Of a stretch of DNA of 32,000 bases, positions 1 to 32,000 are shown piece after piece. The notes below the pieces were generated by a model. It searched no databases, was not told the DNA's origin, and worked only from the letters and a program-made list of their open reading frames with translations. Numbering within the stretch: the first letter of the stretch is position 1; the number at the start of each line of letters is the position of its first letter. Made by a program: the position numbers and the translations under genes. Source of the stretch: Candidatus Omnitrophota bacterium (GTDB taxonomy: Bacteria; Omnitrophota; Gorgyraeia; Zapsychrales; JANLHA01); contig OY759724.1 in NCBI GenBank assembly GCA_963662715.1, forward strand, positions 1,200,001 to 1,232,000. The letters run 5' to 3'.

Positions 1-3000
1 TCATATCTTCAAAGTTTTCTGTATATGGACCGACAATGACAGGTTTGGCAAAATTGGCAGGTTCCAGAGGATTGTGTCCGCCTAACGTATACCAGAAACT
101 TCCGGCAACAACGACGACACTGGCAATGGAATAGAGGGATTTTAATTCACCATACGTATCCAGCATAATCACCTGAGGAGGTCCGCGAGGATCTATGGAA
201 CTCAAAGCAGATTTGCGTATCGCCGGAATACCCTGCAACTCCAAATACCGCATAAATCCGTCAACATCAGCAAGATTGCGCGGAGCAAATATCAGTTTCA
301 CATTTTCCAATCCCGGACGGATAATCAATTCTTTATAGGCCTTGACCAATTCAACTTCTTCACGTTCATGAACACTTCCGTAAACAAGAATCTTATCTGT
401 TCGGTTTAATCCCAAATGTTTTAATAACTCTGTTCTTTCATCTTCCGATAAAGTAATCAGGGATGTGTCATATTTAATATTTCCAATAATGGAAATCCTG
501 TCGTCTCCGACCCCTCTCTGCTGCAGGAATTCTCTTGCAAGTTCAGAAACGGCACCGAAATGATCCGTCAATTCCACGAGTTTACGGCCGTAGAACCGAT
601 ATTTTACCCGAAGGACTTCACCAAGAGACTGGTCGTCCGACAAGAAAGAGTTGATCACGACCGTAGCCGCCCCATATTTTTCTTTGGCAATTCTAACGAA
701 TTTAGGCCCTAACCCTATAAACGATTCCTGGACGACGACATGAACCGGCCTGATAACTCTGAACAGCCGATTAACAGCGGACTTCATATCAAAGACATAC
801 GGAAGAACAACGATATCCTTATCAGCTAAACTCGCCATGTCTTTGACATTTTGGGTGCTGTTTGTCAGCAGGACAATACGATAATCCGGATAAGTCTGCT
901 GCAGAGCTTCTATCAGGGATATGGAATTAATAACTTCCCCGACACCGCAGGCGGAGACCACGATGGATTTCCTGTCGTCTTTGAATGTGGCCTTAATGTC
1001 TCGCGGGATATACCCAAAGCCTGCCGGAATATCGCTCCAGTGACGATGCTGCTTGATAAGATGTCGCACAAAATTCATGCTGTACAACGGGGCAAAAAGC
1101 AGGTCTTTAACGAAGAAGGTCAGCCTTGAGTCTCTTTCAAGCCATTTGGAACCCGTAACCGATACAATAACAGCCGCACATGCACTTCTGCCGGATTTCT
1201 TAATCATCTTGTAGGAATGATACATTCCCAAACGCAGGAGGGCATAGAAAGATTTTCTTTCTTGTCCGTTATCCTTCCCCTGCTTGACCGGGCTGGAAAC
1301 CTTGTTTTCCGGAGACTTAACGCGATAGTTGTACATTTCCGGAACATCATCCTGATCAATCCTTTCAAAAGAGTATCCTTCAGCCAGCATGGAGCCCAAC
1401 AAGACACCTTGTTCACCCCGGTCTTCCAGTAATTCGTTTTCAACGTAAAAGGTCACCTCTCCGTCTATGGAGAAATTGAGATAGATATTACCGAACGCTC
1501 TGTTAACATTGCCGTACGCATCCCACATCGGCAATGTCTCGATATCAAATTTCCGGCGAATAGTGTCCGCCTGCCCTTTGGTCCACTCGACAGCCCATTC
1601 CCAGACATTCTCATCCGGGATGCCGGTCTCTTCCTGGACAGCCTTCCAAATCCTGGACTGCAAGTCGTTAATAAGCGTGACGGTCTCCATTCCGTCATAA
1701 ACGTAGCGGATCACCAGATCTTTGTTCTGTAAGGTCCGGATGACATTGACGAACTCTTCCTGATACTTGGCCGTGACACGGGCTATCCTTTGCCGGCCGG
1801 CTTCTCTGTCAATATCCGCTTCGGACGAATACACCGCTTTGAAGGCATCATGATGCCAAACATGGAAACTCAGGTTGACCTGCAAATCAAACGGCAGGGT
1901 CGCCAGCCGTTCGGCCGCCTGCTGGGCCCGGCGGTCGTTCACCCTCCAGCCGTGTGTCACCAGCCAGACATCAAAGCCCCGTTTATGAATGGCATCCACG
2001 ACATCGGCGATATCCTTGCCCGAAGCCTCATCATAATAGTTCATCGGTTCAAGGTCCTGGCACACGGAAACACCTCGGACCAGACTGGCTCTCACCCAGT
2101 TCAGGAATTCCTCTTGCTGAGGCCCGGACAGAAGATCTTGCATCGCCTCTCTGATCACCGAATGCATGGCGATGTATGGATTCTGGTCACTTAATAAACG
2201 CGTCTGCCGGTATGTGCTGGCCTGTTCGATAAAGTCGGCAAACAGCTGCTGATAACGCTCATCAGTCTCCTCTAATAAGTAATCTATAAGCCATTCCTGG
2301 GTTTCCTGAGTCCAGCGGGCTTTCCTGAATTCCGCAATAAATTCTTCCCGGACATTGACAATAGAATCCAACACTTTTTCGATCTGTTCAAACGGCATCA
2401 CCCGTCCGTTCTTGGAGCTGCCGAAGAGACAGATCAGACAGCCGCGGTTACATCCCGACATAATCTGAATGACCGGAATACGCTTGCGGTAGAAACGGTC
2501 CAGGCGCCCGCCGAACATGATGTAGCCCTGCGGCGGCGTAAAGTAAACCTGGCGGATGGTCCTCTCCCAGACGTCTCCATTAACCGGGCTGGAGGACATG
2601 TTTTCGTTCTCTGACTGTTTCAAAGACAGCAGGACAAATATGCCGTCATCCGATAAATAGAAATCACTGTTGTCCGCTTCTTGCGTCTTCAGAGATTCTA
2701 TTAATTCCCACACGGCAATATGAATAAGATAGAAGTGATCCATGGAGATATCTGCCGGGAACATAACTTTTGAGGTTTCTGCCCAATATCGCTCATAGAC
2801 TTCTGGGAAGCGTTCCTTCAAATGACCCCTTGTGGCAAAGACCGGAACAAGGCCTTCAACGCCAATTTGATCGGCTGTATAATCAAGAATCATTTCTTCG
2901 GTATCCCCATTCTCCTGGACAACCAGCATGGATAAATAATAATGTCCGGCCCTGCGGCTGAAAAGCACCCGGGCATCGATACCGTCTTCTGCCAGGGATT

Positions 3001-6000
3001 CTCCCGCCAAGATGGACATGCTTTCACATCCTTTAGGATATACCGGGAAGTCCTCATGATAATAAGCGCGTTTGAAGTAAGCATGGCGCTGGATAAAATC
3101 TTGCATGCTTTCAATAGACACCGGTTGAATGGTTGCGGGCAGGACTCTCCCGCTGCTGACCGGGGAACTTGCGGCCGCAGAAAGCATAAATGCCTCTACG
3201 GTCTCTTGAAGGACGGTCTTGCTGTAGAAAGCCGTCAGGCTAAGACGGACCGTATTGCCTTCACGGATAAACAGTTTTTCAGGATCTTCGGCAAAATGAA
3301 CGATTCTTATCTGCAGGTCACCGAGGCTCAATCCCTTTCTCTCGACAACATTGCTGACAAAACCGGTCAGCAGCTTAAGTTCTTCCTGCGACACATAAGG
3401 TTTCCGGCTGGCAAGTTTATACGGATATTGACGTGACGGATTATAATCAACGACATGATGCGTAAACCCGGCTTTGTCCCGGATATGAGCCAGCAGGGCA
3501 TAAGCGCTGTCGTCCTGAGCCAACATGCGGATTCCTTTCCGGTCAATAACAGTTCTTAAAACGGCTTCCGTATCGTCATTTTCAATATCTGAAACGATAA
3601 TGGTGTTGACCGGCAAGTCCATCATATCCAAGAGCACGCTGTAAATACCCCGCCCGGCAACGTCGTTCAAATAAACCCAGGCATACAAAGCATTCATGCC
3701 GTTTTCGGAATAAATGCTGAATCTTGCCTCACCCGGGGCAACGCCGTAAACGCCTTCTCCGACATAAACCCTTAATTCATAATTATCCGATTCGGCGCGC
3801 ACCGGATAATCAAAATCATCTTTTCCGACGACATATTCTTCTTCGTTCAGGACATCGGCCATTTCATCAATGTCAATAACCCTCGGCTTACCCCGGACCT
3901 GATACTGTGTTGTCCACGCGCTGTTTTCAAGGCTTAAGACCGCAATATCCCTGTCTTTCCGCTCTGCCGGCATATTGTTTTTCCGGATGACCGGGCTGGA
4001 AGAGCCGGAAGACTCTCTTAAAATCTGTTCGGATAACATAACAGCCGGAGCTTCGACGCGGATAATCAGAGACTCGATTTCCTGTGCGGCGACCAATCCC
4101 TCCTTACTGCGCTGCTTGACGGAGAAGACCTCGTATTCTGTCACGGCCGGCAAGACCGTCTGACGTTCTTCCATGACTTTTCTTACAATATTGGCTGCTG
4201 TCGTAACGTTCTTAACGGCCAGGTAAGCCGTATCCCTTATTGATGCCTCCTCATGAATATAATCCTGAACCGTCTGAATATATCTTAAAGCGCCTTTGGC
4301 GGCTGTCGTCTGCCGGTGAACTGTATCCAGGAGGCTCCTGTGATAAGCCGTTGTGCCGGGCTGAATATTGAGCAGGTTCCAGGCCCGGGCAAGCGTCCCT
4401 TCCGATGTGTTATAAATCTCTGTGCCCTCGGCAAAAATCGTAGAGAGCGCCAGCATAATGCCGCCTTTATCTTCGACAGAGACGTCCCTGCCCCCGACAT
4501 TAATAACCTGGTACTGAATACGGCCTATGCGGGTTTCCATAGAACCCGTCATCAGGGCCGGATCCAGGGAGGAGGCATCGGCCACGATCACCACATCAAT
4601 ATCGTTCGGCTCTGTTGACCAGAGGCTGCTGCCAAAAGCATAGACCAGACGGATATAAGGAACCGCGGCCGCAAACGTTTCATGGACCATAATCTCTGCT
4701 GCTAACCAGGCCGAATCAATCGTCGCTCCGGCAGGAGTATGGATCATCACTTCGGTATTCACAACCGGGCTGCTGGCGGGTTCTCCACCCTCTTCCTGGC
4801 TGAGCAGAGCTTTTCTTTTTTCCGCTTCTTCAAGAATATTTTCCAGCAACTCGTGCAGACGACCGTATCCGAAATTGCGGGACGCCATATGATAGGCGGT
4901 CTTAACCATCGGCAGGGCTCTAACACGTCTGATCCGCTCCTCCTGGCTTTCCGCGTCTATGGCATTAACCAGCTGGATGACTTTCTGAACCGTCTGCCGG
5001 AACGCTAAATAATATTCCAGAGAATACTTCACATACTGCTCTATTTTTTCTTGAGACACTCCGTTAAATGACTGAAGGAAAAGCTTCTGCTTTTCAATCT
5101 CCTTCTCCGGGAAAAGAGGAAGTTCAAGGAAATGCTGCAAATCGACGGCTTTAACCTGATTAGGATTAATATTATATTCCATAAGAAATTCATCACTGAG
5201 CTGAGGATACTCAATAGCCTGGCCTTTCATCTGTTTCTTGATAAACACAGTATAAATTTGATACGGATACACGATAACCGGACGCTGGGCCGCAATTCCT
5301 TCGATCAGACCATTTCCAAAAGCTTCAAAGGTGGATGAATAACTGACAAAATCCAAATTGGCATAAACGTCTTCCAGAGAATAGACCTTATTGCCTTTTT
5401 TATCTTCTTTACGGCCGGCGTTAACCTGGACTCCCCTGCCTTCCAGCCAGGTCACGACCGCGACATCCTCCCCACCCCCATGACGCAACTCTAATCTGTC
5501 AATAAACCTCGCAAGTTTATCCTCATACGCATAATCCTTGCCGTTGAGTTGTCCTGTGATCAAAAGCTTGTAGCGGGCTGCCCGCGCCGGATCCATTTCC
5601 TTGATAAGCTTAAGAAGAAGAACCGGCAGTTCGAGGCTCTTCCTTTCAATAATTCTGATAACCGCTCCGATCACAATGTCATTCTCTTTCAATCCTAACC
5701 GGGCACGGAAATCACTATTAAAACTGTCTAATTCCGGAATGCCGGAGGCGAAGTTCCAGACATTCGGAACAATATGGTTTTGCTGCACAACGCGTTCAAC
5801 GTGTTTGATCAGTTGTTCCGACAATTGGTCCTTCCTGGCAGTCTTGTAAATCTTGGCCATGTTTGTCCAGCGGTCGATCAGCATCTTTCGGGCAATCGGA
5901 TTGATAAAGACCTGAATCACATTATCACCGTAAAGCGGGAAGGCCGTGTCCAGATAATCGCCAATAACGTCATTCAAACGGTTTTCCGGCTGATATCTCC

Positions 6001-9000
6001 GGCGTTCAAACCAGAAATCATGATTATGGTTAACAAAAAGGATGTCTTTTCTCTTGGCCGCAAGCTTGGCTGTTGCCACGCCTAACGGGATCTGCATCGG
6101 GATCGTATTGGCATTTTCAATCACCACCATGGATAATTGGTTGCGGTCAATCCATTTCTCCATGGCTGCCGCGATACGGTCGGAATAAGCTTCCACCAGT
6201 TCGGCCACAACCAGGTTGATCTTCTGGCGGATCAGGCGGAGGACTTTCTTGTTCTGAACAGTTTGTGTGTTTGCCTTAAGGTCACCCTGCTTCTCTATAA
6301 CATCAATGGCCTGCAGGATATCTTCTTTTTCACCCGACGCGAACAGATATTTCTCATTTTCAAGCACGTATTCAAGATCCGCTTTAACCTCGTCCATTGT
6401 TCCGAAATTGGCAAAGCTCAATCTTGTAATAATTAAATTAATCTTATTTTCATAAATGATATCCGGGTTAACGGAATAGTCGATATCCTTAATCCAGGAA
6501 TCCCCTCCGCCTATATAGGCATAAACACTCTTATGCATTTCCAGAAGAACATCGATCCACTTCTTGGTCTCTAAGGACACCCCGTCAAGGTTCCCCATGC
6601 GGTGTAACACAAAACCGACGCGGTCATGGGAGGCTGGACCAGCTGACTGTGTCACCGGACTTGAGCCAGAACCTTCTTTATCAGAAGAGACCCTATAAGC
6701 TCTCCATTCATGCCGCTTCAGGTTCCGCCAGGCATTGGTTGGTTCTATTCCTTCAGCGGAAACGGATAAAGCATAACCCTGTTGCTCAAGATGCTGTAAC
6801 TGGGTTAAGGTTCTTTCCTGCTCAACGCGTCTCTTGGCTTCATCAAAGGCGAACCAGCCGACCAGGAGCGTCGCTCCCTCGCGCAGCATGTCACCGGCCT
6901 TCCGGACCATCTGTTTCTTAACAGCGTCAGACAACCCGGGATAAGACAGCACTGACATCATGATCACCACATCGATCGAATCCCGTTCGATCTGCGCGTG
7001 TTCAAATAACGCACGGTCAATGGTCGGAACTTCAATACGGTATCCCTTTGCAAGGCTCTGTTGTGAAGCGAACGTCCTCCAGGTCTTGTTGACTTTTTTG
7101 TCCGGTTCATAAATAACAAGCTGTGCACCGGCAGACAGGAACATATGCTCCCACGGAACCCAGAATGTCTCGACATGATGCGCTCCCTTCAAGCTGATCG
7201 CATAATCACCCGGCCCCACAGAAACAACCCGGCTTTCCGGACCGATATTCAACTCTGTCACCAGTCTTCTCGCCTGCTCGATATGAATCAAGCGGCTGTC
7301 ATCTTCTTCCTCGTTCTTTACCGGAGAAGAGGTAACCAGCACTCCCGGCACAACCAGCGCAGCAACACCTGTCGCTTTGCCGTGCCCGGCCGGGAGCAAA
7401 ACGGATAGAATCACACGTCCAGACACACCCCTGAGTGATACACTTCGATCCTTCTCAAAGATGTTCCTTAAGACACTCTCTTCACTGTAAGCGATACGGC
7501 TTGTATTCCTGTCCGCTGTCATGCGGAAGACTTGCGCAACAACCTCTGTTAAGACGGCATACCATAACGGCTGCGGAGGACTTAAGCCGGTATGCATATA
7601 GTTCTTCCCGGAAGCCTTTACGGCTTCGAACATGTCCTTAAAGCGTCCCGCCAACATGCCGTAATCCAGGCTCGGAACGGCTGAGAGGAGCCCTGTCAGC
7701 AGGCGGCTGTAATCTATGAAAGCCAGTCCTTTGGGCAGGATATCGGTTGATGTTGTCACCGGAACAAACGGCTGGCCTTGCGGTGTTGAGCGGGCGGTCC
7801 GTTTCTGATTGATCGGTTGAACCGGAGCCTGCATCAGCTGCGGCCAAACAGCCGGAGATATCCAGGTCGGGACCAGAGGCATGATATCTTCTAACGGGAT
7901 TTCGATAACCGTCGGCAAGGCCGGCTGGTTATGGAGTTCTAAAATCGGCGAGGAAGCCGCGCCATCATCGGCTTTCTTTTCTGCCCCTTCAGTTGATCTT
8001 TTCGCTTCGGTCTCTTCATACAACCTGCGGGCTTCCTCACTGATTGTCACTTTATCCTGTATAGGCTCTATCTTCCGGCTCTTCTTGTCTTTTCGCTGCT
8101 GATCCTCTCGCTGTTTACGGTCTTTGTCCGTTCTGACGGTCTTATGCACCGGCTCGACTTTACGCTCAACCTTTTCAACCGGGCTGCTGGAATCTGCTTT
8201 ATTTTCGCTGTCCAGATCAGCTTCCCGTAATTCATAAAAGGTGTCAGGATTGATGCCCCAGTTGTTCAGGTAGCGCAACACACGCTGCCGCGGGGCATGC
8301 GTCCGGACCTGCAGGAGGTCTATCACTTCTTCATACAGTTTCACTTCTCCGCCCTTCACCGCCTCTACCACCAAGTCCCGGTTCTCTTCAAATATCTTCC
8401 GCTCCTGCTCATTCACGATAACGCTGTCCCTCACCGGCATCAGTTCTTCCGTCGGCTTCAGATGCCGTTCCACAGCGTTGATCACAGGCTTAAGCTCCCC
8501 TTCCGACACCTCGCTCACTTCCGCCACCGTCAGGGCTGACAGCTGCGCCAATCGCGGAACCGTCACGTTAATCCCTTCCTTCTTCAGCCGGATATACGCC
8601 GCTATGATACTCTGGGCTTTCGCCGACAATCCTATCGCGTCCCCGTAATACGCCAGGTCCTTCGCCGTCCTGATCGCGTTCTCTTCCACCAGCTCCTGCA
8701 GCACGTCCGCCTTCCTGATCCTTCTTTCCACCGGGCTCGAGCTCAGGTCCATCCGGGAAACCGGAAGTTCTTCACTCGAGAGTTCGACCATCAGGTCCCA
8801 GAAGTCCGGCATGATCCCTTCATAATCCGGATGGTCTGTCTGCAGCGTCTCATACGCCTCTTCCCCGATCTCCCGGAAATCCTTCATATCCTCCGCATCC
8901 AAACGGTTCACGTCAAACCATCTCTGACCTATGTACCCCCGGCTCTTCACGTCATAGCCCAGGATCCCCGCCAAGGTGATCTTCGCCTCTCGCGCCTTCT

Positions 9001-24000: not shown

Positions 24001-27000
24001 AAACATTAGTCTCCTCCTTAATCTCGGCATCTTTTTCATCCCCGCCCTTTAATATCACCAGGGCCTTTCTCAGGTCTTCACTTAACAACTCTTCTCTTTT
24101 CCAAACAAAATTATTAATAAATTCAAGGCGTCGCGATTCCTTTTCGTCTTCTTCCTCGGTAGCGCTGATCTTTTCCACGGCTTGCTGGAACAATTTAATT
24201 GTTTGCTTCAAAATATGATCCACGGCTTCGCTTAAATTATCCTCAATAAATTTCTCGCTGGACACCTGATCAGTAACATTTTTCCCTAAATCACCGCGGA
24301 TCTCTTCAGCCCGCTTGACTTTTTCCTTGGTCCCGGTGAACAAGCCGCTAAAGAAAGATCCGGCAAAAATACCTGCGCCGGCAAAAGCGAATAAACCGAG
24401 GAAGCCGGACGGAAGGAGAGGCAACAGGAACGAACTGATCAGCCACATGCTCACTCCGGCTCCTGCGAACCAGCCGAAGACCTTGACCTTAGGATTATCT
24501 AATCCGCGTCCTGAACCCGAGCCTCCTTTACCGCCGTTCTGAGGATTATCTGATCCTTGTCCCTGGCTTGAGCCCGAGTCTCCGTTATCGTTGTTCTGAG
24601 GAGCCGGCCCGCGGGTATCGTCTCCCGGGAACATCTTTCTTAACTGTCCGCCGATCCAACGCGGCACGTTGACAATCAAGCCCAGGATCAGGCCAAGGAC
24701 CGTCAGTGTCGACATGACCAGAGTTCCTGTCATGTAGAGATTCATATGATCTCTTAAGTCCTGAAGCTTGAACTTGTTCGTCTTCATAAGCGGATAAACG
24801 ATGATATAAAGCATCAGCGGGATATACGGGTAACCGCCCATAAGCAGGGATAGGCCGACGATAACTGCGGTGGTTAAGGCCCATTTCTTGAATCCGATCT
24901 TCTTGAAGAACTGCGGATAATGGGCTGTGAAGTGAACCTTGGCCCAGGTCTTGAATCCGACTGTTGTCGGAGTTGAACCCGGATTCAGGAGGAACGGCGC
25001 AAACATCGAAGCAAAGGCCATCAAGCTCGGGAACAGCGACCATATGGAACCAGGATTCATCCAGAGGATCGTACCGCTGATGACAAAGAGGATGCTCGGG
25101 ATGACCCAGCCGTAGCCTAATAAGTTCACCTGTGCGTACAAGTCGCCCTGAGTAAATAATTTTTTCGAATCAAAGCCCTTCGTCGGTTTAAACGGTACGA
25201 CAGTGTCGCGGCCTGGCCGACGTCCGGTAGCGATATAATCCGCCCGGTTCACCAAGGCCTTCTTCACACCGACCGAGAACGCGTTATAAACCAGGGACAT
25301 GTAGGTGATCGCCAGAAGCGGGAACAGTTTCAGGAACTTCACTGTACCGCGGACCAGACCTTTCTCCAGAACTGTCTGCAGATAACCGGATGAGGTGATG
25401 GCCTGCGATAAGAAGAAGCCGACCAAACCGAAGATAAGCTCGCTCGGGAACCCGGCAAACAAGCTCATACCGAACAATACGATGGTTAACAGGTATGTGG
25501 TATTGGAAATCACGACAAAAGGCTTGCGCAAGAAGTAGCCGATCGAAGCGACGAAGTGGCCCAGGGAGCGGCTGAAGCCGACGACCTTGGATTTGTTGTG
25601 CTGCCGCAGCATATGACCAATGGCCTGTTCAGCGGCACCAGCCCCGAATTTCTCGGAAATACCGACCAAACCAACGTAGACCGCTTCACGGCCTTTACCG
25701 GCCTGCATCAATTCCGTGTTCGACACTCTTTCACCCATGAGCGTGGCTTTGTAGGCGCCGAAGATATCTTCATTGACCCACGGAGCGCTGAAGAGACCTA
25801 ATTGTCTGAACGATCTGCCCCGGACAAAGTCAGGGTGACCGTAATGGTAGCGGATGCCCATGAAGTTCAGCACTCTCTGGACCATGGTAACGAACGTATG
25901 GTCACCGAAAGCGTGCACCGCACCGGCCGGAGAGAATTCGTCAGTAAAGATATCTTCCGGAACACCGACGATCGCGACCTGATCATCCCGGCGGAACTGT
26001 TCCATGACGTTCGGAGCCTTAAAGGTTTCTTCAAGGTAAAGATCCTGGTTCATGTCCATGACCATGACGATCTGGCCGCGGGTGAAGCGCAGGATATTAT
26101 TCTGGTTCATCGGTTTACCCTGACCGGCAAACGGATGGCTGTGCAGGCGGATCGGGTTGAGGCGGACCACGCGGCCGATGGTGTTGCCGTCCCGCTCAAA
26201 TTTATGCATAACATCCTCACCGTCCTGTACTTCTCCTGCGCGGTACTCAACCAAGGCACCGGCAAAACCGTTGATCCTATTGTCCGGATTGTGCAGGTAA
26301 GCCATTCTCATGGACGGGTATTTCTTCAGGAGCAAGTGAATATCCTGTATCAATAAATGGGCTTTAGCACTGTCTTCTTGCAGCAAGTCACCGTAAGGCT
26401 GGTCACCGGCGACAAACTCAAACTTCTCGTCAACTTTTGCGAGGATCTTTGCTTTGTAATCATATGCGTTATGGAGTTTCTCCTGTTGGCCTTCCAGTTC
26501 CTTTCTCAATTTTTCAAGTCCGGCGCGGCGCTCAGCCTTGGCTTCCTCATCTTCCGCAGCCTCTAATTCCTCTTCTGCCGTGGCGATCTTTTCATATTGA
26601 CTGAATATGTCATTTAGGACTTCTGTTAAGGCAGCCACAGCCTCTATTTCAGCTTTAAGAGCTTCTATTTTCTCCTTCTGCTCTTCAATCTGCTGTTCTA
26701 CAGCGGCGATCTGGATATTTAACAGCTGCTTTTCTTGCGACTCGCTGTCTTTCTTCGCGTTCATCTTTGCTATTAACTCTTTCAATCCGTCTTCCTGTTC
26801 TTCCAGGATTAATTTTTCATGGCCCATTTCCGCTTCGGCTTTCGCTTTCCGGCTCTCCTGGTCTGCCAGCAGCAAGCCTTCCAGAGTCGGGAAGTTGACC
26901 TTGGCCAAGAATTCATACATTTCTCTGTAGCGCATAATACCGCGGACCGAACGGGACAGCGGCTGGTAGCGGTAAGACACCCATAACCGGACTTCAAACT

Positions 27001-30000
27001 GCATATCTTCATCGTTGATATCGAGTTTCTGGCCGTAAGTCAATTGGTCCATGTTCTTGATATCATGCATCTTCCTCTCAAATTCCTGCTTCGAGATATT
27101 TTTAGCCGCATAATCGGCTTTCACTTCATTTTCCATTCTCTGAACAAAATTCTTCCATTCGTGCGGGGCTTTGCTGATGATATACGTCAAGAAAGTGGCA
27201 TTGGTCAGATATCTTTCGTTGATGGCATCATATTCATCAAATGTCTTGTCGCTGAACGGATACACAATGGTTTCAAACAGGAACGGCAGGGCCACACTCA
27301 TGGTATACATTTTCTCCCAGATCGGAGTCTGATCCATATCCATGAACAAGCTGGAGAGGAAGTATTTGATACGGGCCTGCACCCTTTCCGTTTCCGGAAC
27401 GGCTGAGAAGTCAGGCCGTCCTGTAACCTCACCCGTTAAGAAGTTATATTTTTCTTTGTGTTTTATGTCGTACCGCAATTTATCGGCTTGGTCGTCACTG
27501 AGTAAATCATCCTCTCTCAGGGCATTGATGATCATGTTCCAGGCCTCGGCCCAGGCAATCGTCTTCTGTTCGTCTGTCAGATCCACACGGGACATCACCC
27601 AGGTATCCTTGCCCTCTTCATCTTTAACCTTCCTGGCGCTGACGTGGGAGGCCGGCAAGTTCTTGTTCTTGAACTCTTCGGCGGCGCTTTCCAGGATATC
27701 ATCAACCGAATCTCCGCCGATCTTCTCCAAGCCGTAATGAGCTAAGATCACGTTCAGGAGCTTTAAGGCAAGCATTCCGCCCAGGATGATGCCCAAAGCC
27801 GGCCAGCTGATGAATCCGAGCGCGGCCGTCGGCCAGAGGAGTTTAACGGCTGTGAACCCGGCCAGAACATAAAAGGCTTTCGGAACATAATCTTTTAAGG
27901 TTTCTGTGAGGGCGGCTCCGACTTTGCCCGTGATGCTGTCTTTTGCCTTGACCTTGCCTTTGATGCCGGACCAGGTGAGCACGCGGTTGTTACCGTTCCA
28001 TTTGGCGATGATGTAGCCGAGCGCGCTTTCAATGAGGTAGAAGTAAGCGAAGATATCCAGCAAGAAGATCATGAAGAACACGGAGAAGGCCCCGGCCAGG
28101 AGAATGACATTCCCGAACGGCAGGACAGCGGTTCCCAAGCCCGGCAGCATCCAGGAGCTCTTGAACACAATACTGAGCGGCACAGCGAGCCATTTCCAGA
28201 TATACAGGTTGAAGACAAACTTGGCGAGGAAGGACAAGCCCATGACGATACCGGCACGGATCTTTCTTCCGGTGTTTCCGTGCAGTTTCTTCGGATTAAT
28301 TCCGGCATCCAGCGGCTGGATATCCCACTCATCATGATCCAGGGTCTTCTTCTGCGAATAAATCTTATCGATCTTCTTGATACCGAAGTACACCAAGATT
28401 GCCAGTCCGACAACGATGCCTACACCCGTCAGCCAGGACACTAAGGAGGCGCCGGCCAGGGCCGGGACCTTCCAGACCCCGCTCCAAATCAGACCGTAAG
28501 AGGAGGCAACGATCGTGCCGAGCAGGGTGGCAATGATCTTGTTGAAGTTGATGACGATCTTGAACCAGCCCAGGAGACCGAACTTGCTGGTCTGCACATC
28601 CGGATAAACTTTCCTGATATAGTCGTTGACGCAGATGGCCTTGGCCCCTGGCCCTGCCGGCAACTTATTGACATTAGCCGTGCGCATAAATTCAAAGGCT
28701 TCCTCAACATTTCTGTCAGCTGTCTTGTCCTTCTTTACATCCCTATAAATTCCAACAATATCCTTTCTCACCTGCTCTTCGATCAGGTCGCGTCCGGTCT
28801 GGCCGTTTTCATCCGGCGTCTCATACCAGGTAATGAACTTCGGTGAACGGAAGTACATTTCAACTTCGTCGTGCTGAATGACATCGGCGTTAGTGCGACC
28901 GCCCTTGGCTTTAGCGACTCTCTGGTGCAGGGACAGGATGACAGACCAGAGCCGGGCCTCCTGCTTCTCAATGACCTCGCCGATCTTCTTTTGACCGTAG
29001 CGTCTGAGTCTCAAGGCTTTATAGAATCGGTAGAAATCAACGGCAGATGTGACGTGCGCTGTCTTATCAGATGCCAAATTCACGAGATAGTAGAGATACA
29101 TTTCTTCAAGACCGAAGTGATTGTCGATCTGGTCGAGTTCATACTTCAGGACTTCTGCATCAAGCGCTTTGCCCATGATCCTCTCGAACCAGTCCCGGTA
29201 GCGCTTGAAGAATTCCTTGATAAACTCTTCTTCGGAAACACCGCTGTACAGGTCATTCTTCATTTCGCTGGTCAGCATGGTCTTGGCCATCAGGGCCACA
29301 GATTCCTGGAAGCCGTAAGCCGGCAGGTATTTGATCTTCGCCAGGATTTCTTCAATATTCTTAATACCCTTCCGGTCCAGTTTCACTTCTTCCGATTGAG
29401 GTGCAGGCTTCTTGTCCTTCTTCAGCCCTTTCTTCCGTAATATCTGGCTGATCCAGGCAACGATCTTTCCGATGATCAAGATACCCAAGAGGTAGGCTCC
29501 GCCCAAGCCGCCGACGACCTTCCATGACCGGCCTTCTTCAAGCCATTTCTGGAACAGTTTCGGACGGGCCTTATCGATCAGGTCATCATCGTTATAGGTA
29601 TATTCCTGTTCATAAATCTGTCCTGGAGATTCATCGTCTTTGACCAACCGGTAATTTTCCGGTTTGAACTGGCCGGGAGCCACGCCTTCGGCTTCGTCAA
29701 CCAGAATGCGTGTTCCCTGCAGGTAGGTCTGCTGACCTTCGGACTGGCCGTTTTCAGATTCTTCATCCTGAACAGCAAAGAATTCCAGGTCGCGGTAAAC
29801 CTTGATCACATGGCCTTCATCGGTAATGGCGGCCCACGGTTTTCTGTATGGAGACTGCGTATCATAAAGAACCGTCTCTTCACCCTTTGTGGCCACCCCG
29901 AGCATCTGCAGCATGATCTGCATGGTCACATGAGCATAATTTTCGGTCAACAACTGTCCGGCCGGTGTATAAACGATTTCACGCTGGAACGGAGCGTCCA

Positions 30001-32000
30001 AGACGAAGTATTCATAACCGCGGACCTGGCTGAGCGTCTTGCCGTCGTTATAAGAATACTGCAGGACAGGCAAGACCTTATCGGCGTCTGTTCCGAACAC
30101 TTCGGCGATGCTTGACTTGATATCCTCCGGATTGACAATCAGGCGGATCTCTGTTTCATCGGTATACGGCTCGGCCCAGCCTCTCGCCAGCAATTTCTCT
30201 GAAATTTCTTCCCAGTCAAGGCCTTCTTCTCTCTCGACCTGCTGCTGTGTCAGGACCTGCGGATCGACGATCTTGACCGTCATCTGCTCACCTCTTCCGC
30301 CGGTCAGGATGAACTTCCGGCCGTCATTGCCCAGGACATCTCTCCGGTAATAATCTTCCTCCTCGGTCGGAGAACGGAAAACCCGGACTTCTTTCAAGCC
30401 GTTGCCGTCCTTGAACACGATCGTTCCCGGATTGATTCCGACTCTCAGATCAACTTCAATATCTTCCCCGTTATTGACCTTGAGCTTGTGTCCTTCCAGC
30501 CACAGGACATTAATACCGAAATCTTTGTTGGCATAAAGCGTGGCGATATCGCGGCCGCGGCTGTCATTCGGAGTCAGGTAATGGTAAAGCTGCTTACCTG
30601 TCTTGTCCGGATTATATCGCGGCCGGCCCAGCAGAGGCAGGAGCGTCTTGGCATCCGCACCGAACACTTCCGTCATCTCCGCTCTCACGTCATTCAGGTT
30701 GACGATCAGGTGAATCTCCTCAAGGCCTGTGCGCTGAGCCCACCCGTTGTGGAGCAGTTTTTCGGAGACATCGCTCCAGTCAAGCTCGGCTCTCTCGATC
30801 TGATTTTTGGTCAGATAACCGTTCTCAAGGATAACCGGTGTTTCCTCAACGATATCAAACAATGTCGCGCGGGAAATACCCATCTTGGCCAGATGCTGCC
30901 AGAGATAAGCATTTTCAAGTCCGAAGCGGACGAGCGCTGTTCTGTTGTAGGATCTTTCCATTTCCTCATTAAACAACGCCTCTGCCTGTACCTTCAGGCC
31001 AAGCGCTTCAGCCTCTTCAATACTTAACGTTCTGAAGAATGTTTCTATCTGATATTCAACCCGCTCTTCCGCTTTCTCTCCCGCAGGCCCTTCAATTCTG
31101 GTAATCACGTCATCGAGCTTCACGGACCGTTTCACTTCACCCGTTCTCTCATCAAACTCAAGACCCACGATAATTTCCACCAGGTCTCTTTCAAGATTAT
31201 CCGGGTTCTGGGCCGGGACAGCTTCTTCCCTGACCGTAATGATCTTTCTCTTCACCGGATCATGCGGGATTCGGTATGTCGTGGTTCGGACATTGTCAAC
31301 CGTTGTCTCTGTCGAAACCTCAAAGATCAGATCCGACAAATCATCCACTTTACTGAACCGGGACATATCAAGGTTCAGCAAGGCTTCTCTGACCAAATCA
31401 TGCTGGATAAGAGCGGCGAAATCGATCTGCTGAATATCTCCGGCCCTGACACGGCCCCTATTTTCCGTATCCCAGACTTTGACCCAGCCTGAACCGTTCG
31501 CGCGGATCTCAACCTCGCTGGTCTCATGCTTGCCTGTCGGAGAATATTCTTTTCTTTCCTGGATTCTGAAGATGCTCTTTTCACCCGCCCGCTCACCAAG
31601 CTGTTCGTTTTTGTCAGAATCCTTAACCAAGGCGAAGAGCTGTTCCTGATTTTCAAAGTTCTCCGGAATCTGGATAGACCCGATCTGTTCTACCATAATC
31701 TTGCCCTTAACGATTTCTCTGCGTGTGACAAGAGCGCTTCCGCCGAGTTTCTCCTGGTCTCTCAGGTTAATGAATGTCTGGACGCGGTTCTCCCTGGTTC
31801 CGGTATAGCTGTAAACTCCCGTGACATTTTCGACTTCAACCTCTGTGCCGTCTGCCTGACGGACCGTTACGGTGAGACCTGTCTCTTTCTTGTAATCCGT
31901 GGAATAAAGCTCTTCGCCCGTTTCCGGATCAAAATAACGGATCTCTTCGCGCTCAGGATCTGTGCTCTGCAGCAGTTCGCCCTGGGCATTGTACACGTCA
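1..32000 (-). CDS. Internal fragment of one giant multidomain ORF (10,666 in-phase codons, 31999 down to 2; both ends run off the window)
   Basis: Minus-strand phase has codons at plus coordinates 3k+2..3k+4. Hand translation of many separated stretches (2-580, 1121-1321, 2423-2461, 9362-9418, 21902-22138, 23042-23101, 24335-24490, 27482-27541, 31691-31999) is stop-free and protein-like. About 40 recognisable family motifs across the window all have low coordinates congruent to 2 mod 3. The ORF track (start-to-stop ORFs >=60 aa, TTG starts allowed) has no entry in this phase, which is expected only if the phase has no stop in the window. The other five phases never exceed 249 aa. Confidence 0.9.
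2..1285 (-). other. Module: GT30 Kdo transferase (WaaA/KdtA-like) domain, cut by the window edge
   Basis: IVVSACGVGEVINSISLIEALQQTYPDYRIVLLTNST (about 880-960) resembles the WaaA N-terminal S-x-G-E motif region. SFWYTLGGHNPLEPANFAKPVIVGPYTENF (GGHNPLEPA at 56-82) matches the conserved WaaA C-terminal GGHN-x-LEP motif. A hydrophobic stretch ACAAVIVSV (1160-1186) lies upstream. The module begins right after SSPV at 1286-1297. Confidence 0.75.
1298..2581 (-). other. Module: radical SAM-like domain
   Basis: IPVIQIMSGCNRGCLICLF carries the CxxxCxxC iron-sulfur motif C-N-R-G-C-L-I-C at 2429-2452, about 40 aa after the module start. The remaining ~380 aa were not recognised. The module is bounded by SSSPV (2582-2596) and SSPV (1286-1297). 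Confidence 0.5.
2597..3157 (-). other. Junction-delimited module (~187 aa), no family recognised
   Basis: Bounded by SSPV 3158-3169 and SSSPV 2582-2596. Starts SSGRVLPATIQPVSIESMQDFIQRHAYF and ends LKQSENENM. Confidence 0.35.
3170..3988 (-). other. Junction-delimited module (~273 aa), no family recognised
   Basis: Bounded by SSSPV 3989-4003 and SSPV 3158-3169. Starts IRKNNMPAERKDRDIAV and ends TVEAFMLSAAA. Confidence 0.35.
4004..4762 (-). other. Module: minimal (Pol-beta-type) nucleotidyltransferase-like domain plus helical tail
   Basis: RLVYAFGSSLWSTEPNDIDVVIVAD has G-S at 4628-4633 and D-I-D at 4595-4603. This is the G-[SG]-x(9-13)-D-x-[DE] signature of the NTP_transf_2/MNT family. Confidence 0.5.
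4775..6652 (-). other. Module: GT-B fold GT4-family glycosyltransferase
   Basis: VSYSSTFEAFGNGLIEGIAAQRPVIVYP contains the E-x7-E motif (E at 5324-5326 and 5300-5302) typical of Glycos_transf_1 retaining glycosyltransferases. The ~620-aa module begins GFVLHRMGNLDGVSLETKKW. It is bounded by SSPV 6653-6664 and 4763-4774. Confidence 0.7.
6665..7318 (-). other. Module: class I SAM-dependent methyltransferase-like
   Basis: RVVSVGPGDYAIS is motif-I-like. IDVVIMMSVLSY and MLREGATLLVGWF are in the order and spacing typical of the Rossmann-fold methyltransferase core. Motif I is divergent. Confidence 0.4.
7331..7942 (-). other. Junction-delimited module (~204 aa), no family recognised
   Basis: Bounded by SSPI 7943-7954 and SSPV 7319-7330. 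Starts LELHNQPALPTVIEIPLEDIMPLVP and ends GVAALVVPGVLVT. Confidence 0.35.
7955..8176 (-). other. Short Lys/Arg/Glu/Asp-rich low-complexity segment (~74 aa)
   Basis: EKVERKVEPVHKTVRTDKDRKQREDQQRKDKKSRKIEPIQDKVTISEEARRLYEETEAKRSTEGAEKKADDGAA. Bounded by SSSPV 8177-8191 and SSPI 7943-7954. Confidence 0.5.
8192..8728 (-). other. Junction-delimited module (~179 aa), helical, no family recognised
   Basis: Bounded by SSSPV 8729-8743 and 8177-8191. Starts ERRIRKADVLQELVEENAIRTAKDLAYYG and ends YELREADLDSENKAD. Confidence 0.35.
8744..9907 (-). other. Junction-delimited module (~388 aa), no family recognised
   Basis: Bounded by SSPI 9908-9919 and SSSPV 8729-8743. Starts EERETSPRPWNGPHRLNEIEEVF, contains ITDEELWDKVRTTPIETMFRR (9362-9418, verified) and ends ELPVSRMDL. 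Confidence 0.35.
9920..10750 (-). other. Module: Nudix hydrolase (preceded by a short helical, HTH-like segment)
   Basis: A complete Nudix box G-x5-E-x7-R-E-U-x-E-E-x-G-U reads GHPRIGEAGIKAIQREFQEELGV at 10346-10414. Confidence 0.75.
10870..11037 (-). other. Possible LuxR/sigma-70 region-4-like helix-turn-helix segment
   Basis: LGAREREVLKWVERETQGERGRVVRVTPQVIREVGVTSATQMDRILRKALKM resembles the L-T-x-R-E-x-E-V-L...HTH pattern. This rests on weak pattern recognition only. Confidence 0.25.
11380..12040 (-). other. HAD-superfamily (type IIB-like) phosphatase domain
   Basis: Motif I is MILSDYDGTLAA (DYDGT at 12011-12025). Motif IV is EVLVLGDNYDPENALSD (about 11405-11440). The cap-like region between them is compatible with a IIB sugar-phosphatase type. 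Confidence 0.6.
12470..12900 (-). other. ComF-like / type I phosphoribosyltransferase domain
   Basis: VDYIVPVPKMKGQYNQLLPLAETLAETLGAPV is followed by the PRPP-loop-like KTVVVLDDHAGSRLTLLELQYLLLNAGAKRVIILAL (VVVLDD at 12590-12607). Confidence 0.6.
13655..14599 (-). other. Module: CCA-adding enzyme / poly(A) polymerase (PolyA_pol) family nucleotidyltransferase-like, possibly catalytically degenerate
   Basis: SVFLYGWMVRDLLRGERPEHLGYLM (about 14440-14500) aligns to the GG-x-VRD-x-LLG...DxD head motif. The second Gly is Trp and the DxD position reads HLGYL. ASDLTINRMMLVFDDKSDDPILQDPFNGYQDLL (14224-14305) matches the RDFTIN-A...DPF-G-x-x-DL motif. Confidence 0.55.
14783..14935 (-). repeat. Two to three copies of a ~40-aa peptide repeat (V-G-A-x-T-x-M-S-S-S-P-L-x-x-E-E-Y-x-A)
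   Basis: PVGASTLMSSSPLTAEEYAAWKAAQSVETSAVKITS, then SPVGALTYMSSSPLSEEEYRAYLAEQARSTAGSIRKF, then a degenerate GAVSIMSAVPVNVDEHY. The same repeat family occurs at 21527-21800. Confidence 0.7.
15272..15316 (-). repeat. ELTRPVPERGLSLSS peptide/DNA direct repeat, copy 1
   Basis: In-phase translation is E-L-T-R-P-V-P-E-R-G-L-S-L-S-S. The DNA core 15281-15316 is 34/36 identical to 16217-16252. Confidence 0.85.
16211..16252 (-). repeat. ELTRPVPERELSSS direct repeat, copy 2
   Basis: In-phase translation is E-L-T-R-P-V-P-E-R-E-L-S-S-S. Near-identical DNA to copy 1. Confidence 0.85.
16352..16396 (-). repeat. ELTGTVPEQGLSLSS direct repeat, copy 3
   Basis: In-phase translation is E-L-T-G-T-V-P-E-Q-G-L-S-L-S-S. 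The DNA core 16361-16396 is 32/36 identical to copy 1. Confidence 0.8.
16430..17158 (-). other. Module: UPF0489-like (arginase/deacetylase-fold-like) domain
   Basis: VMVMDYHNYAYSFWW, ANKILHIDAHADAEM (about 16882-16912), NVLDVDLDVL and IITIATSPEF occur in the order seen in the UPF0489 family. Recognised from memory only. Confidence 0.4.
17174..18673 (-). other. Module: MidA/NDUFAF7-type (Methyltransf_28, DUF185) SAM-dependent methyltransferase
   Basis: FAEFMSQAQTEYYGRIAQIGRGKDFDTYVE, FSVVEMGAGNGTYALNIM (VVEMGAGNG at 18452-18478), FLSNELIDDLPGHRL and GFVVTIDYGG (about 17973-17990) appear in the family order. Confidence 0.7.
18689..20731 (-). other. Module: RelA/SpoT-homologue (p)ppGpp-synthetase-type domain plus TGS-like and ACT-like domains, no HD hydrolase
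   Basis: VEDVFAPLAERLG (about 20462-20500); SMSSRVKSVYSIAEKFERQ (about 20225-20280); LYDLLGLHVVVKGEIQDYWEAL (20141-20200); RYDSLHMGL; PLEIKIMNETNLNLMRFGNKAAHWFYK (AAHWFYK at 19877-19897). A TGS-like segment follows (about 19500-19770, ending LQNGDIVGI), then an ACT-like segment (about 18960-19160, LPYDRIGLLKDIVAVITQHLGNV). Only ~75 aa precede FAPLAERLG in the module and they contain no H-D motif. Confidence 0.8.
20747..21400 (-). other. Module: class I SAM-dependent methyltransferase-like
   Basis: LIEQYVGKDAALLDIGAGDNAFANTIA (LLDIGAGDN at 21230-21256) is a motif I look-alike. A downstream FNVITLNEPF segment is motif-II/III-like. Confidence 0.45.
21413..22189 (-). other. Module A: hydrophobic/amphipathic segment plus three 40-aa VGASTLMSSSPL repeats
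   Basis: RAYEGLAAWQKALIIVPGRKDAVRDNAEISLVFPAVDETVEQKEVIYITMASLMKRMAMLLRFLLDFLVRFLMRAFGAL (21902-22138, translated codon by codon) is followed by the tandem repeats at 21527-21800. Paralogous to module B. Confidence 0.5.
21527..21800 (-). repeat. In-frame 120-bp tandem repeat, 2.3 copies, encoding VGASTLMSS[S/A/T]PLSAEEYAAYLASKEADTVSSSIK
   Basis: Units 21531-21650 and 21651-21770 are near-identical and share gagctcat[c/t]aacgtggaagcgccgacg...gatactgctgctgacggtatcggcttctttgc...caggtaagccgcatattcttcggcgcttaa. A third partial unit starts at 21771. Confidence 0.9.
22232..24330 (-). other. ~700-aa Lys/Glu/Ala-rich, predicted alpha-helical/coiled-coil spacer
   Basis: Continuous charged helical-looking sequence, for example QLKKEFVSRTVLEVFDLDREL (23042-23101, verified) and EEAKKMLEKALTEAFLAAKKEEALALIEKKIKENSAALAQDLEEII. 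No Cys- or Trp-rich or catalytic motifs were recognised. Confidence 0.5.
24335..24480 (-). other. Predicted transmembrane hairpin (two hydrophobic helices)
   Basis: VFGWFAGAGVSMWLISSFLLPLLPSGFLGLFAFAGAGIFAGSFFSGLFTG, translated from 24335-24490. Confidence 0.6.
24491..24598 (-). repeat. In-frame imperfect tandem duplication (51 + 57 bp) encoding a Gly/Ser/Asn-rich low-complexity linker
   Basis: aggattatctaatccgcgtcctgaacccgagcctcctttaccgccgttctg (24491-24541) versus aggattatctgatccttgtccctggcttgagcccgagtctccgttatcgttgttctg (24542-24598). Protein reads PQNNDNGDSGSSQGQGSDN then PQNGGKGGSGSGRGLDN. Confidence 0.7.
24640..28600 (-). other. GT48 1,3-beta-glucan synthase (fungal FKS1 / plant callose-synthase-like) catalytic region with flanking TM clusters
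   Basis: WNMIINALREDDLL (27500-27541) matches the callose-synthase WN-x-II-x-x-REEDL motif. RLWVSYRYQPLSRSVRGIMRYREMYEFL (about 26905-26990) matches R-x-W-A-S-x-R-x-Q-T-L-x-R-T-x-R-G-M-M-Y-Y. GQGKPMNQNNILRFTRGQIVMVMDMNQD (26042-26125), followed by LYLEE, matches GEGKPENQNHAIIFTRGE...IDMNQDNYLEE. Also present: IVGVPEDIFT, RYHYGHPDF (about 25827-25850), NEDIFGAY, MQAGKGREAVYVG and ADYIATGRR (25217-25243). Multi-helix hydrophobic clusters lie at about 27740-28590 and 24650-25560. Confidence 0.8.
26440..26885 (-). other. ~150-aa charged coiled-coil insertion inside the GT48 cytoplasmic domain
   Basis: EGLLLADQESRKAKAEAEMGHEKLILEEQEDGLKELIAKMNAKKDSESQEKQLLNIQIAAVEQQIEEQKEKIEALKAEIEAV...AEDEEAKAERRAGLEKLRKELEGQQEKL sits between the RGIMRYREMYEFL motif and EKFEFVAGDQPYG. 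This is the position of the variable region in FKS/CalS proteins. Confidence 0.55.
29445..29515 (-). other. Predicted single TM helix separating the N-terminal repeat region from the glucan-synthase region
   Basis: KVVGGLGGAYLLGILIIGKIVAWISQILRKKG, translated from 29431-29520. Confidence 0.6.
30040..30790 (-). repeat. Intragenic tandem duplication of a ~188-189-aa unit (diverged)
   Basis: LDWSDVSEKLLHNGWAQRTGLEEIHLIVNLNDVRAEMTEVFGADAKTLLPLLGRP (about 30607-30790) aligns with LDWEEISEKLLARGWAEPYTDETEIRLIVNPEDIKSSIAEVFGTDADKVLPVLQYS (about 30040-30226). DNA anchors: ccagtcaag at 30776 and 30212 (564 bp apart) and gaacacttc at 30662 and 30095 (567 bp apart). Confidence 0.65.
31880..31999 (-). 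other. Possible degenerate YD/RHS-like repeats at the N-terminal edge of the window
   Basis: DVYNAQGELLQSTDPEREEIRYFDPETGEELYSTDYK resembles the Y-x-Y-D-x-x-G-x-L periodicity. It is a very short stretch at the window edge. Confidence 0.2.

Follow-up and report, generated by a model that had tools for sequence, protein, structure and literature searches.

We describe a short junction peptide, Ser-Ser-Pro followed by Val, Ile or Leu (SSP[VIL]), that recurs between unrelated enzyme modules along a single giant reading frame filling a 32,000-nucleotide stretch of contig OY759724.1 (positions 1,200,001 to 1,232,000; hereafter the window). The window is very likely a genuine internal fragment of a giant gene of the type known from Omnitrophota, and the peptide in all probability acts as a functional delimiter of modules. 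The overall explanation that we favour, with a probability of roughly 0.6, is a giant gene for a membrane-anchored chain of many enzymes that is delimited, and perhaps processed, at this motif. The giant open reading frame (ORF) itself is known biology; the junction peptide, together with mention of a glucan-synthase-like GT48 core, is new relative to both giant-gene preprints (West-Roberts et al. 2023, 10.1101/2023.11.21.568195; Nielsen & Lui 2026, 10.64898/2026.06.07.730766).

A recurring peptide at the boundaries between modules

The window protein contains 24 copies of SSP[VIL], compared to 0.32 expected from its composition. The residue after SSP is V in 15 of the 25 copies of this tripeptide, I in five, L in four and M in one, and in tetrapeptides of the form xSP[V/I] the first residue is Ser in 20 of 22 cases. 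Three of the 25 copies lie inside a tandem repeat of 40 amino acids (aa; VGASTLMSSSPL...), where relatives have SAAPL or SATPL, while the other 22 occur singly or doubly between modules. When 95 junctions from 13 proteins were pooled, the resulting logo was [A/S/P][S/A/V]-S-S-P-[V64/L17/I13/M1], with information confined to these six positions, and the linker upstream of them had an excess of Ser, Pro and Ala and few aromatic residues. As controls, we counted the motif in the housekeeping genes that flank P0007, a complete motif-bearing gene, where it was absent from 5,954 aa compared to nine copies in P0007 itself, and in ORFs from unrelated loci, which held 23 copies in 235,087 aa. Long search hits (n = 34) carried 53 motifs where 3.1 were expected, and short hits (n = 117; short homologues of the Methyltransf_28 (MT28) module, 49,088 aa) carried one where 1.7 were expected.

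The two Ser positions of the motif are encoded by TCT, TCC, TCA, TCG, AGC and AGT, and thus by both the TCN and the AGY boxes. The Pro codon is CCG in 23 of 25 copies, which is not above the gene-wide 74%, and the Val and Ile codons vary. This variety of synonymous codons indicates that conservation acts on the peptide and not on a DNA site.

A full-text literature search for SSSPV, SSSPI and SSPV returned no relevant description of a junction motif. Six long MT28-containing relatives (P0004, P0006, P0037, P0115, P0122 and P0148) have no SSP, no recurrent tripeptide and no shared border sequence. Since these proteins show no substitute, the motif is, judged from the sequences compared, specific to a clade and not universal. 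An alternative junction peptide in the long relatives that lack SSP was considered and rejected. One motif-less long MT28 protein is from Candidatus Zapsychrus exili.

Motif-delimited units contain whole domains

Splitting the chain at the motifs truncated no Pfam domain, and profile coverage inside the modules was essentially complete. In 10 of 10 relatives that bear the motif (38-60% identity), it flanks the MT28 module on both sides, and successive motifs are 150-900 aa apart; the search with the RelA and MT28 modules covered 1.84 billion representatives exhaustively. We modelled aa 4400-5000 with AlphaFold2 (AF2) from a 62-sequence alignment and obtained a mean predicted local distance difference test score (pLDDT) of 84 and a predicted template modelling score (pTM) of 0.82. 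In blocks of ten residues, pLDDT was at most 50 up to model residue 40, reached 84 from residue 41 and stayed high through residue 540, and residues 544-577 were again below 50; the two motifs are at model residues 40-43 and 545-548. The modelled fold is that of the COG1565/MidA arginine methyltransferases (top Foldseek matches 4g67, 1zkd and 5zu0). A helix begins at the motif Pro, with Ser-Pro as the helix N-cap, and stand-alone MT28 proteins of ~380 aa start aligning 1-5 residues past the motif. Each detected domain is whole within one motif-delimited unit, and the single unit that was modelled is a self-contained fold.

Relatives keep the motif and exchange modules at it

Among the nearest relatives of the window protein are P0001 and P0002, partial proteins from metagenome-assembled genomes (MAGs) of Candidatus Omnitrophota that are 57-58% identical to aa 3751-4948. 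L002 (CAZAXH010000003.1, a 348-kb contig from the GTDB genome scan) is 60% identical and reads through 16.3 kb in one frame (2-16345; 5,448 aa, 0 stops), with seven junction motifs that all lie downstream of the membrane region. P0155, from an Omnitrophota MAG, has in common with the window the order HAD, SSSPV, NUDIX, SSSPV, its NUDIX module being 40% identical and bordered by SSSPV on either side. These closest relatives, at 40-60% identity, are all stop-free from end to end. More distant relatives that share the motif (P0159, P0089/P0160 and P0110) also carry the label Candidatus Omnitrophota. Protein queries of 1,121-1,439 aa gave 1-3 significant matches each, scoring being apparently restricted to at most 8,000 prefiltered candidates; the genome scan yielded one relative, L002, and the metagenome scan mostly stand-alone MT28 genes, which served as negative controls.

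L002, P0001 and P0002 come from independent assemblies and are colinear with aa 3253-5650, with the frame open across every junction, and the boundary between the HAD and NUDIX domains (aa 7075-7364) is common to P0155. This colinearity argues against a chimeric join for aa 3253-5650 and 7075-7364. Orthologous junctions keep the motif in P0001, P0002, L002 and P0155, with one S-to-A change, in P0002. The linkers upstream of these junctions vary by 0-13 residues and are otherwise unalignable, and their indels never break the frame. That the frame survives such indels indicates that translation through the junction is under selection.

The modules themselves turn over. In P0001 the MT28 module is followed directly by the second copy of a repeat-bearing module (R module), and modules 5 and 6 are missing, while L002 has module 5 and lacks module 6. 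An unrelated module of ~340 aa stands in place of aa 3533-3755 in L002, P0001 and P0002, and a different module follows NUDIX in P0155. Clustering of 98 modules from all motif-bearing proteins revealed few shared families. Evolution of these chains thus proceeds by gain, loss and exchange of cassettes exactly at the motif.

Complete motif-bearing genes of ~3,400-3,500 aa are represented by P0007 (L003 10001-20116, and L004) and by an ORF of L008, which have 8-9 exact matches to SSP[VILM] and carry a signal peptide at the N-terminus. Directly upstream of the complete genes lies a gene for a cyclophilin-type peptidyl-prolyl isomerase (L003 9199-9741, L004 463-1005, L008 3270-3809), which in L008 has a lipoprotein-like signal sequence. 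This adjacency is intriguing given the invariant Pro of the motif, but may reflect no more than conserved gene order, as an EF-G-like gene has been retained at the same place. P0160 (3,520 aa) begins with modules delimited by the motif, one of them RelA-like (aa 1-1157); four predicted transmembrane (TM) helices come next, and then PG_binding_1 and Peptidase_M23, with no motif beyond the TM cluster. It seems that blocks with the motif lie on one side only of TM clusters.

In L005 (ENA ERZ25039459 contig_38025, 1-25922; 348-kb contig) the region from the end of GT48 through RelA to MT28 is spread over ~10 adjacent ORFs (11,609, 276, 1,633, 126, 675, 1,973 ... 7,546 aa). The 11,609-aa ORF ends at the equivalent of window aa ~2570, and the 7,546-aa ORF lies downstream. 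The 675-aa ORF ends and P0063 begins, in frames that overlap, within a junction ('PVGAVxVASSSP') that is duplicated, and three ORFs stop 12-46 aa past a junction motif. These breaks could mean that the gene has really split at junctions, or could stem from indel errors in long reads.

The window contains no marker gene; its placement within the Planctomycetes-Verrucomicrobia-Chlamydiae (PVC) superphylum is firm, and the phylum label rests on submitters' names. A tentative link to Omnitrophota, made in a first-pass annotation from the DNA letters, is supported by the Candidatus Omnitrophota labels of the nearest relatives (P0001, P0002 and P0155). Discordant labels are carried by L002 ('uncultured Planctomycetales bacterium') and P0017 (MGE5196912.1, 'Deltaproteobacteria bacterium'), and are probably binning or naming issues.

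The window is a single reading frame

Translation of the reverse complement from plus-strand coordinate 31999 gave 0 TAA, TAG or TGA codons in 10,666 codons, just as the first-pass annotation had said in calling the whole window one reading frame. The five remaining phases have 258, 399, 530, 565 and 682 stops and a longest stop-free run of 274 codons. Given stop frequencies of 2.4-6.4% in these phases, a chance origin of a 10,666-codon stop-free run is effectively impossible. GC content at codon positions 1, 2 and 3 (~0.55/0.36/0.57) is constant across all 1000-codon blocks, as expected if the window is one continuous coding sequence. The frame is open at both edges, in agreement with the earlier claim of a gene of more than 10,666 codons with both ends outside the window, and it is missing from the list of ORFs because it overruns both window ends. 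Outside it, the longest start-to-stop ORF is 249 aa (16889..17638, plus strand), exactly the maximum given before. The earlier count of ~40 motifs from more than 15 families stood in part, with ~10 unrelated families significant in Pfam and NCBIfam. The statement that proteins of this size are very rare was too strong, as proteins of up to 85,804 and 147,155 aa have been published for the phylum. The recurring junction peptide had gone unremarked, though it is the most informative feature of the window.

Scans of the window for tRNAs and Rfam families found no embedded RNA gene or ribozyme. Promoter- and terminator-like sites on both strands were as frequent as in shuffled sequence, so that internal promoters or terminators were discarded on chance-level counts. 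Internal translation starts were discarded as well, there being no Shine-Dalgarno (SD)-like sequence or regular Met after the junctions.

Candidate roles of the junction peptide

In the mechanism that we propose, ribosomes would read the giant gene as one chain, and a common post-translational factor would recognise the junction peptide. The peptide would be a proteolytic processing site, at which the chain, once inserted into the membrane or exported, would be separated into its single enzymes, giving a bacterial polyprotein or 'operon translated as one chain'. Cleavage is the role of the motif that we rank first, if tentatively, for three reasons. There is one copy per boundary, which in the MT28 module abuts the N-terminus of the next fold while the linker before it varies freely; the peptide recurs between unrelated modules, as in viral polyproteins and multifunctional-autoprocessing repeats-in-toxin (MARTX) toxins; and S-S-P-V/I/L resembles the P4-P1 substrates AAPV, AAPL and AAPM. 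The latter are classical substrates of elastase- and subtilisin-type serine proteases; in the motif, Pro would correspond to P2 and Val, Ile or Leu to P1.

Composition bears on where the chain might be handled. Just nine of the 10,666 residues of the window protein are Cys (0.08%), and three of these nine belong to the CxxxCxxC of a radical S-adenosylmethionine (SAM) module; Cys makes up 0.02% of L002, and 0.27% of P0007 compared to 1.21% in 15 flanking genes. Such depletion characterises proteins that undergo export or are translocated in an unfolded state. Together with the signal peptides of the shorter relatives and the PG-binding and M23 domains of P0160, the low Cys content is an indirect sign that hints at export. 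More speculatively, SSP[V/I/L] might be the recognition or cleavage site of a dedicated system, and its carriers a clade of true cellular polyproteins, in which dozens of enzymes would be made as one chain, exported or anchored via the glucan-synthase-like core and then set free as separate proteins, possibly acting as effectors in or on a host or prey cell.

Several observations weigh against processing. No protease domain was detected in the window with Pfam or NCBIfam, the 10 kb around the complete P0007 and L008 genes hold a cyclophilin gene but none for a protease, and module clustering revealed no protease-like module common to all motif-bearing proteins. Module 6 has two predicted TM helices (aa 5265-5283 and 5494-5512) around a segment of ~210 aa with an HExxH sequence (HETAH, aa 5378), and might be a metallopeptidase. 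Its match to eCIS_core/DUF4157 is sub-threshold (E 0.14), however, its AF2 single-sequence model is uninformative (pLDDT 43), it has no significant Pfam, NCBIfam or PDB match and no similarity to the M48 module of P0063, and the predicted topology places the HExxH segment across the membrane from the remaining modules. The motif Ser-Pro forms a helix N-cap in the AF2 model, so that a purely structural role is possible. Enzymes such as RelA/SpoT, radical SAM enzymes and glycosyltransferases depend on substrates of the cytoplasm, which is at odds with the signal peptides of the shorter relatives. Finally, no independent assembly spans aa 5826-7074 or aa 7365-10666 as a check on colinearity.

A reading in which the chain stays uncleaved is only slightly less probable than cleavage. 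The protein would then be an intact, membrane-tethered array of 'beads on a string', and SSP[VIL] a structural signal for the start of a domain or a site of linker modification. As a structural element, Ser would cap the helix with Pro at N1 and insulate the folding of adjacent modules; as a modification site, the motif would serve, for instance, in O-glycosylation, as a Ser/Ala/Pro-rich sequon of the PglL type, or in Ser-Pro phosphorylation. The modelled helix does begin precisely at the motif Pro, but capping or a hinge needs no invariant S-S-P plus an aliphatic residue, with Ser at the first position of nearly every xSP[VI] (20/22), and the motif is retained at orthologous junctions while its surroundings change. 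The Ser/Pro/Ala-rich upstream linkers resemble the glycosylated linkers of secreted multidomain enzymes, although the latter usually have many scattered Ser and Thr, whereas here a single copy per boundary abuts the next fold. An uncleaved array would also be consistent with the lack of a protease in or beside the motif-bearing genes examined and with the gene for an exported cyclophilin-type prolyl isomerase upstream of P0007-type genes (L003, L004 and L008). Nielsen & Lui view giants that have TM helices only as membrane-anchored cytoplasmic arrays (10.64898/2026.06.07.730766), but the fast gain and loss of modules suggests that they are independent of their neighbours.

It is very improbable that the motif is a footprint at the DNA level, left where cassettes were inserted or recombined at a short nucleotide site that encodes SSPV. 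Such a site would explain why whole modules are swapped exactly at the motif and why some junctions have tandem duplicated motifs; however, there is no conserved DNA core, with Ser, Val and Ile codons varying and CCG at background, and neutral scars should be lost by the time proteins have diverged to 40-60% identity, whereas the peptide persists. Least credible of all is that the window does not encode one protein, being an assembly chimera or a fused operon with internal initiation or transcript processing: this could draw on the split of the syntenic L005 region over adjacent ORFs and on the lack of cross-validation for aa 5826-7074 and 7365-10666, but no SD-like sequence or consistent Met follows the junctions, promoters and terminators are at chance, there is no Rfam match, independent assemblies at ~60% identity preserve an open frame despite their variable linkers, and one or more of the L005 breaks fall where a junction is duplicated and the frames overlap, the pattern that a long-read indel error would give.

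Comparison with known systems

The Archaeovorin type is represented by the 39,678-aa protein of Velamenicoccus archaeovorus; the 'giant' set of the same study comprises 46 proteins of >30,000 aa, their cleavage points being stated as unknown, and SecA-DEAD-like domains and C39 or S8 peptidases (N-terminal) were reported mostly near the termini of full-length Omnitrophota giants (West-Roberts et al. 2023, 10.1101/2023.11.21.568195). With at least 10,666 aa, the window protein exceeds the 10,000 aa that mark an Omnitrophota giant ORF. It resembles the Archaeovorin class in its great length, many TM helices, divergent domains and Omnitrophota-labelled relatives, and in having glycosyltransferases, methyltransferases, SAM enzymes and NUDIX hydrolases. 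Unlike that class, it has no SecA-DEAD, C39/S8 peptidase, HEAT or TPR match within the window; these may lie beyond it, so that their lack does not speak against membership. The Archaeovorin paper makes no mention of a GT48 glucan synthase or of an SSP[VIL] junction peptide. The 'multi-enzyme metabolic cluster' class reaches 147,155 aa (Nielsen & Lui 2026, 10.64898/2026.06.07.730766), and the window protein is like it in being made up of many distinct Pfam families without one dominant repeat, in bearing TM helices and in combining methyltransferase, GT1, radical SAM and NUDIX domains. The catalogue that defines this class, which comprises 5,761 proteins of at least 10,000 aa and covers domain content and topology, mentions no linker, junction, motif, cleavage or glucan synthase.

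Non-ribosomal peptide synthetases (NRPS) and polyketide synthases (PKS) are likewise very long bacterial multi-module ORFs; the window, in contrast, has no condensation, adenylation, ketosynthase (KS), acyltransferase (AT) or carrier-protein domains, and its modules are unrelated and not iterated. Viral polyproteins, such as those cut at picornavirus 3C or potyvirus NIa sites, derive many mature proteins from one ORF with the same boundary peptide. The window protein is alike in that one short peptide recurs at every boundary and is conserved between variable flanks; it differs in that its gene is cellular, more than 10 times longer and membrane-embedded, and no protease was identified. MARTX toxins of Vibrio are exported proteins of 3,500-5,300 aa with RTX repeats, unstructured linkers, effector modules that are shuffled among strains and an embedded, inositol-hexakisphosphate-activated cysteine protease that cuts after Leu. 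They share with the window protein unrelated enzyme modules on one polypeptide, linkers with a short common determinant, module shuffling and low Cys; the window has no C80/cysteine protease domain (CPD) or RTX match and so is no MARTX toxin, and the similarity is one of logic only, cleavage here being a hypothesis.

The junction peptide provides a testable handle on whether Omnitrophota giants are processed, and as a marker could show where giant proteins are cut or handled. If cleavage at the junctions is the correct reading, the motif supplies the missing cut points, and motif-bearing giants can be parsed into their mature products. It can also divide dark giant proteins into pieces of a size that structure prediction can handle. 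The turnover of cassettes at junctions by which these giants evolve resembles that of an operon, here contained in a single reading frame.

Organisation of the window

The features of the window are listed in Table 1.

Table 1. Features of the window protein and their window coordinates. Amino-acid positions are those of the translated frame; junction coordinates in brackets are nucleotides.
Feature	Position	Strand	Evidence or remark
Uninterrupted frame, 10,666 codons, open at both ends	2..31999	-	Stop counts, codon-position GC
Unannotated soluble N-terminal region, aa 1-825	29525..31999	-	No Pfam family, no junction motif
Single predicted TM segment, aa 826-844	29468..29524	-	Kyte-Doolittle
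First TM bundle, 6 predicted helices, aa 1148-1412	27764..28558	-	Kyte-Doolittle
GT48 (1,3-beta-glucan/callose synthase, FKS-like) catalytic region, aa 1474-2177	25469..27580	-	PF02364
Second TM bundle, 6 predicted helices, aa 2162-2550	24350..25516	-	Kyte-Doolittle; 39% identity to C-terminus of the L005 11,609-aa ORF
Glu/Lys-rich spacer, aa 2551-3258, ends at first junction motif	22226..24349	-	Sub-threshold Pfam matches only
Double junction ASSSPV-LEEV-SSPV, aa 3259-3270	22190..22225	-	Also double in L002 (KSSPV...VSSPV)
R module copy 1, aa 3271-3532, ends SSPM (21401-21412)	21404..22189	-	Conserved in P0001, P0002
Unannotated module, aa 3533-3755, ends SSSPI (20732-20743)	20735..21403	-	Replaced in relatives
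RelA/SpoT-type (p)ppGpp-synthetase-like module, aa 3756-4441, ends SSSPI (18674-18685)	18677..20734	-	PF04607 E 1.2e-10
MidA/COG1565 methyltransferase module, aa 4442-4946, ends SSSPV (17159-17170)	17162..18676	-	PF02636 (Methyltransf_28) E 1.4e-51
UPF0489 (PF12640) module, aa 4947-5194, ends SSSPI (16415-16426)	16418..17161	-	In L002, absent from P0001
Module 6, aa 5195-5555, ends SSSPL (15332-15343)	15335..16417	-	Absent from L002 and P0001
R module copy 2, aa 5556-5799, ends SSPV (14600-14611)	14603..15334	-	VGASTLMSSSPL-type repeats
1283-aa multi-domain module, aa 5800-7082, no internal motif, ends SSPV (10751-10762)	10754..14602	-	PF00156 E 6e-7, TIGR00201, TIGR01484
NUDIX hydrolase module, aa 7083-7363, ends SSPI (9908-9919)	9911..10753	-	PF00293 E 3e-11
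Four unannotated modules (393, 184, 78, 208 aa), aa 7364-8226, block ends SSPV (7319-7330)	7322..9910	-	Motif split
Class-I methyltransferase-like module (weak), aa 8227-8448, ends SSPV (6653-6664)	6656..7321	-	PF08242 E 0.008, below cut-off
GT-B glycosyltransferase (Glycos_transf_1) module, aa 8449-9078, ends SSPV (4763-4774)	4766..6655	-	PF00534 E 1e-6
Three unannotated modules (258, 277, 192 aa), aa 9079-9805, block ends SSSPV (2582-2593)	2585..4765	-	Motif split
Radical SAM module, aa 9806-10237, ends SSPV (1286-1297)	1289..2584	-	PF04055 E 4e-6
Kdo-transferase-like (Glycos_transf_N/GT-B) module, aa 10238-10666, cut by window edge	2..1288	-	PF04413 E 4.1e-19

The chain of aa 3259-10666 comprises ~20 unrelated units delimited by the junction peptide. 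Significant Pfam or NCBIfam families in the window are GT48, RelA_SpoT, Methyltransf_28, UPF0489, Pribosyltran/ComF, NUDIX, Glycos_transf_1, Radical_SAM and Glycos_transf_N, and matches to ACT, HAD-IIB and Methyltransf_12 are weak. About half of the modules have no Pfam, NCBIfam or PDB-sequence match, and PDB sequence searches with the dark modules returned no match. The two R modules, which are conserved in L002, P0001 and P0002, are 35% identical to each other (aa 3303-3514 and 5580-5798) and consist of a hydrophobic or amphipathic helix followed by 40-aa tandem repeats (VGASTLMSSSPL[ST]AEEYAAY). Copy 1 has 2.2 such repeats (VGASTLMSSSPLSAEEYAAYLA...), seen in the DNA as a 120-nt tandem repeat at 21528-21790 with 91% matches, and copy 2 contains an internal junction-type SSPV at aa 5725. 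The RelA/SpoT module is 57-61% identical in P0001, P0002 and L002, and its C-terminus is ACT-like (weak ACT_4 match). Within the 1283-aa module, a ComF/phosphoribosyltransferase-like domain occupies aa ~6408-6507 and a HAD-IIB-like domain aa ~6655-6861. Further junctions lie at 8729-8740, 8177-8188 and 7943-7954 inside the block of aa 7364-8226, and at 3989-4000 and 3158-3169 inside that of aa 9079-9805, whose last module (192 aa) weakly resembles ATP-grasp/D-Ala-D-Ser ligases (NF000036, E 8e-4). The radical SAM cysteines are aa 9850, 9854 and 9857.

No SSP motif occurs in aa 1-3258, the first being at aa 3259. A hydropathy scan alone (Kyte-Doolittle, window 19, threshold 1.6) predicted 13 TM segments in aa 826-2550, in addition to the two in module 6. 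The Glucan_synthase profile PF02364 matches aa 1474-2177 with E 1.2e-68 and 232.6 bits (cut-off 37.2); the alignment is partial and covers two stretches of the 819-position profile, the better one being positions 168-509. This region is 29-30% identical to plant callose synthases and 38-49% identical to the ENA fragment P0152. GT48 is a family known mainly from eukaryotes. The predicted layout of TM bundle, catalytic region and TM bundle mirrors that of eukaryotic FKS1 and callose synthases; unlike these, the glucan-synthase-like region of the window sits inside a bacterial giant protein. The spacer that follows is probably helical, judged by eye from its composition. In its membrane region L002 has a very diverged GT48-like segment (HGSKWNQKTAV...LDADH) below Pfam detection. 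The name Velamenicoccus means 'coated coccus', and the GT48 core of the window may be related to the surface coat behind that name.

Within the soluble N-terminal region there is an internal repeat of ~105 aa (aa 390-492 and 577-682, 42% identity; window 29954-30832). The base composition of the window departs locally over 7001-11000, a stretch that spans the NUDIX module and the dark modules following it, where GC content rises to 0.55, GC skew reaches -0.27 and AT skew -0.19, compared to a GC skew of about -0.1 elsewhere in the window.

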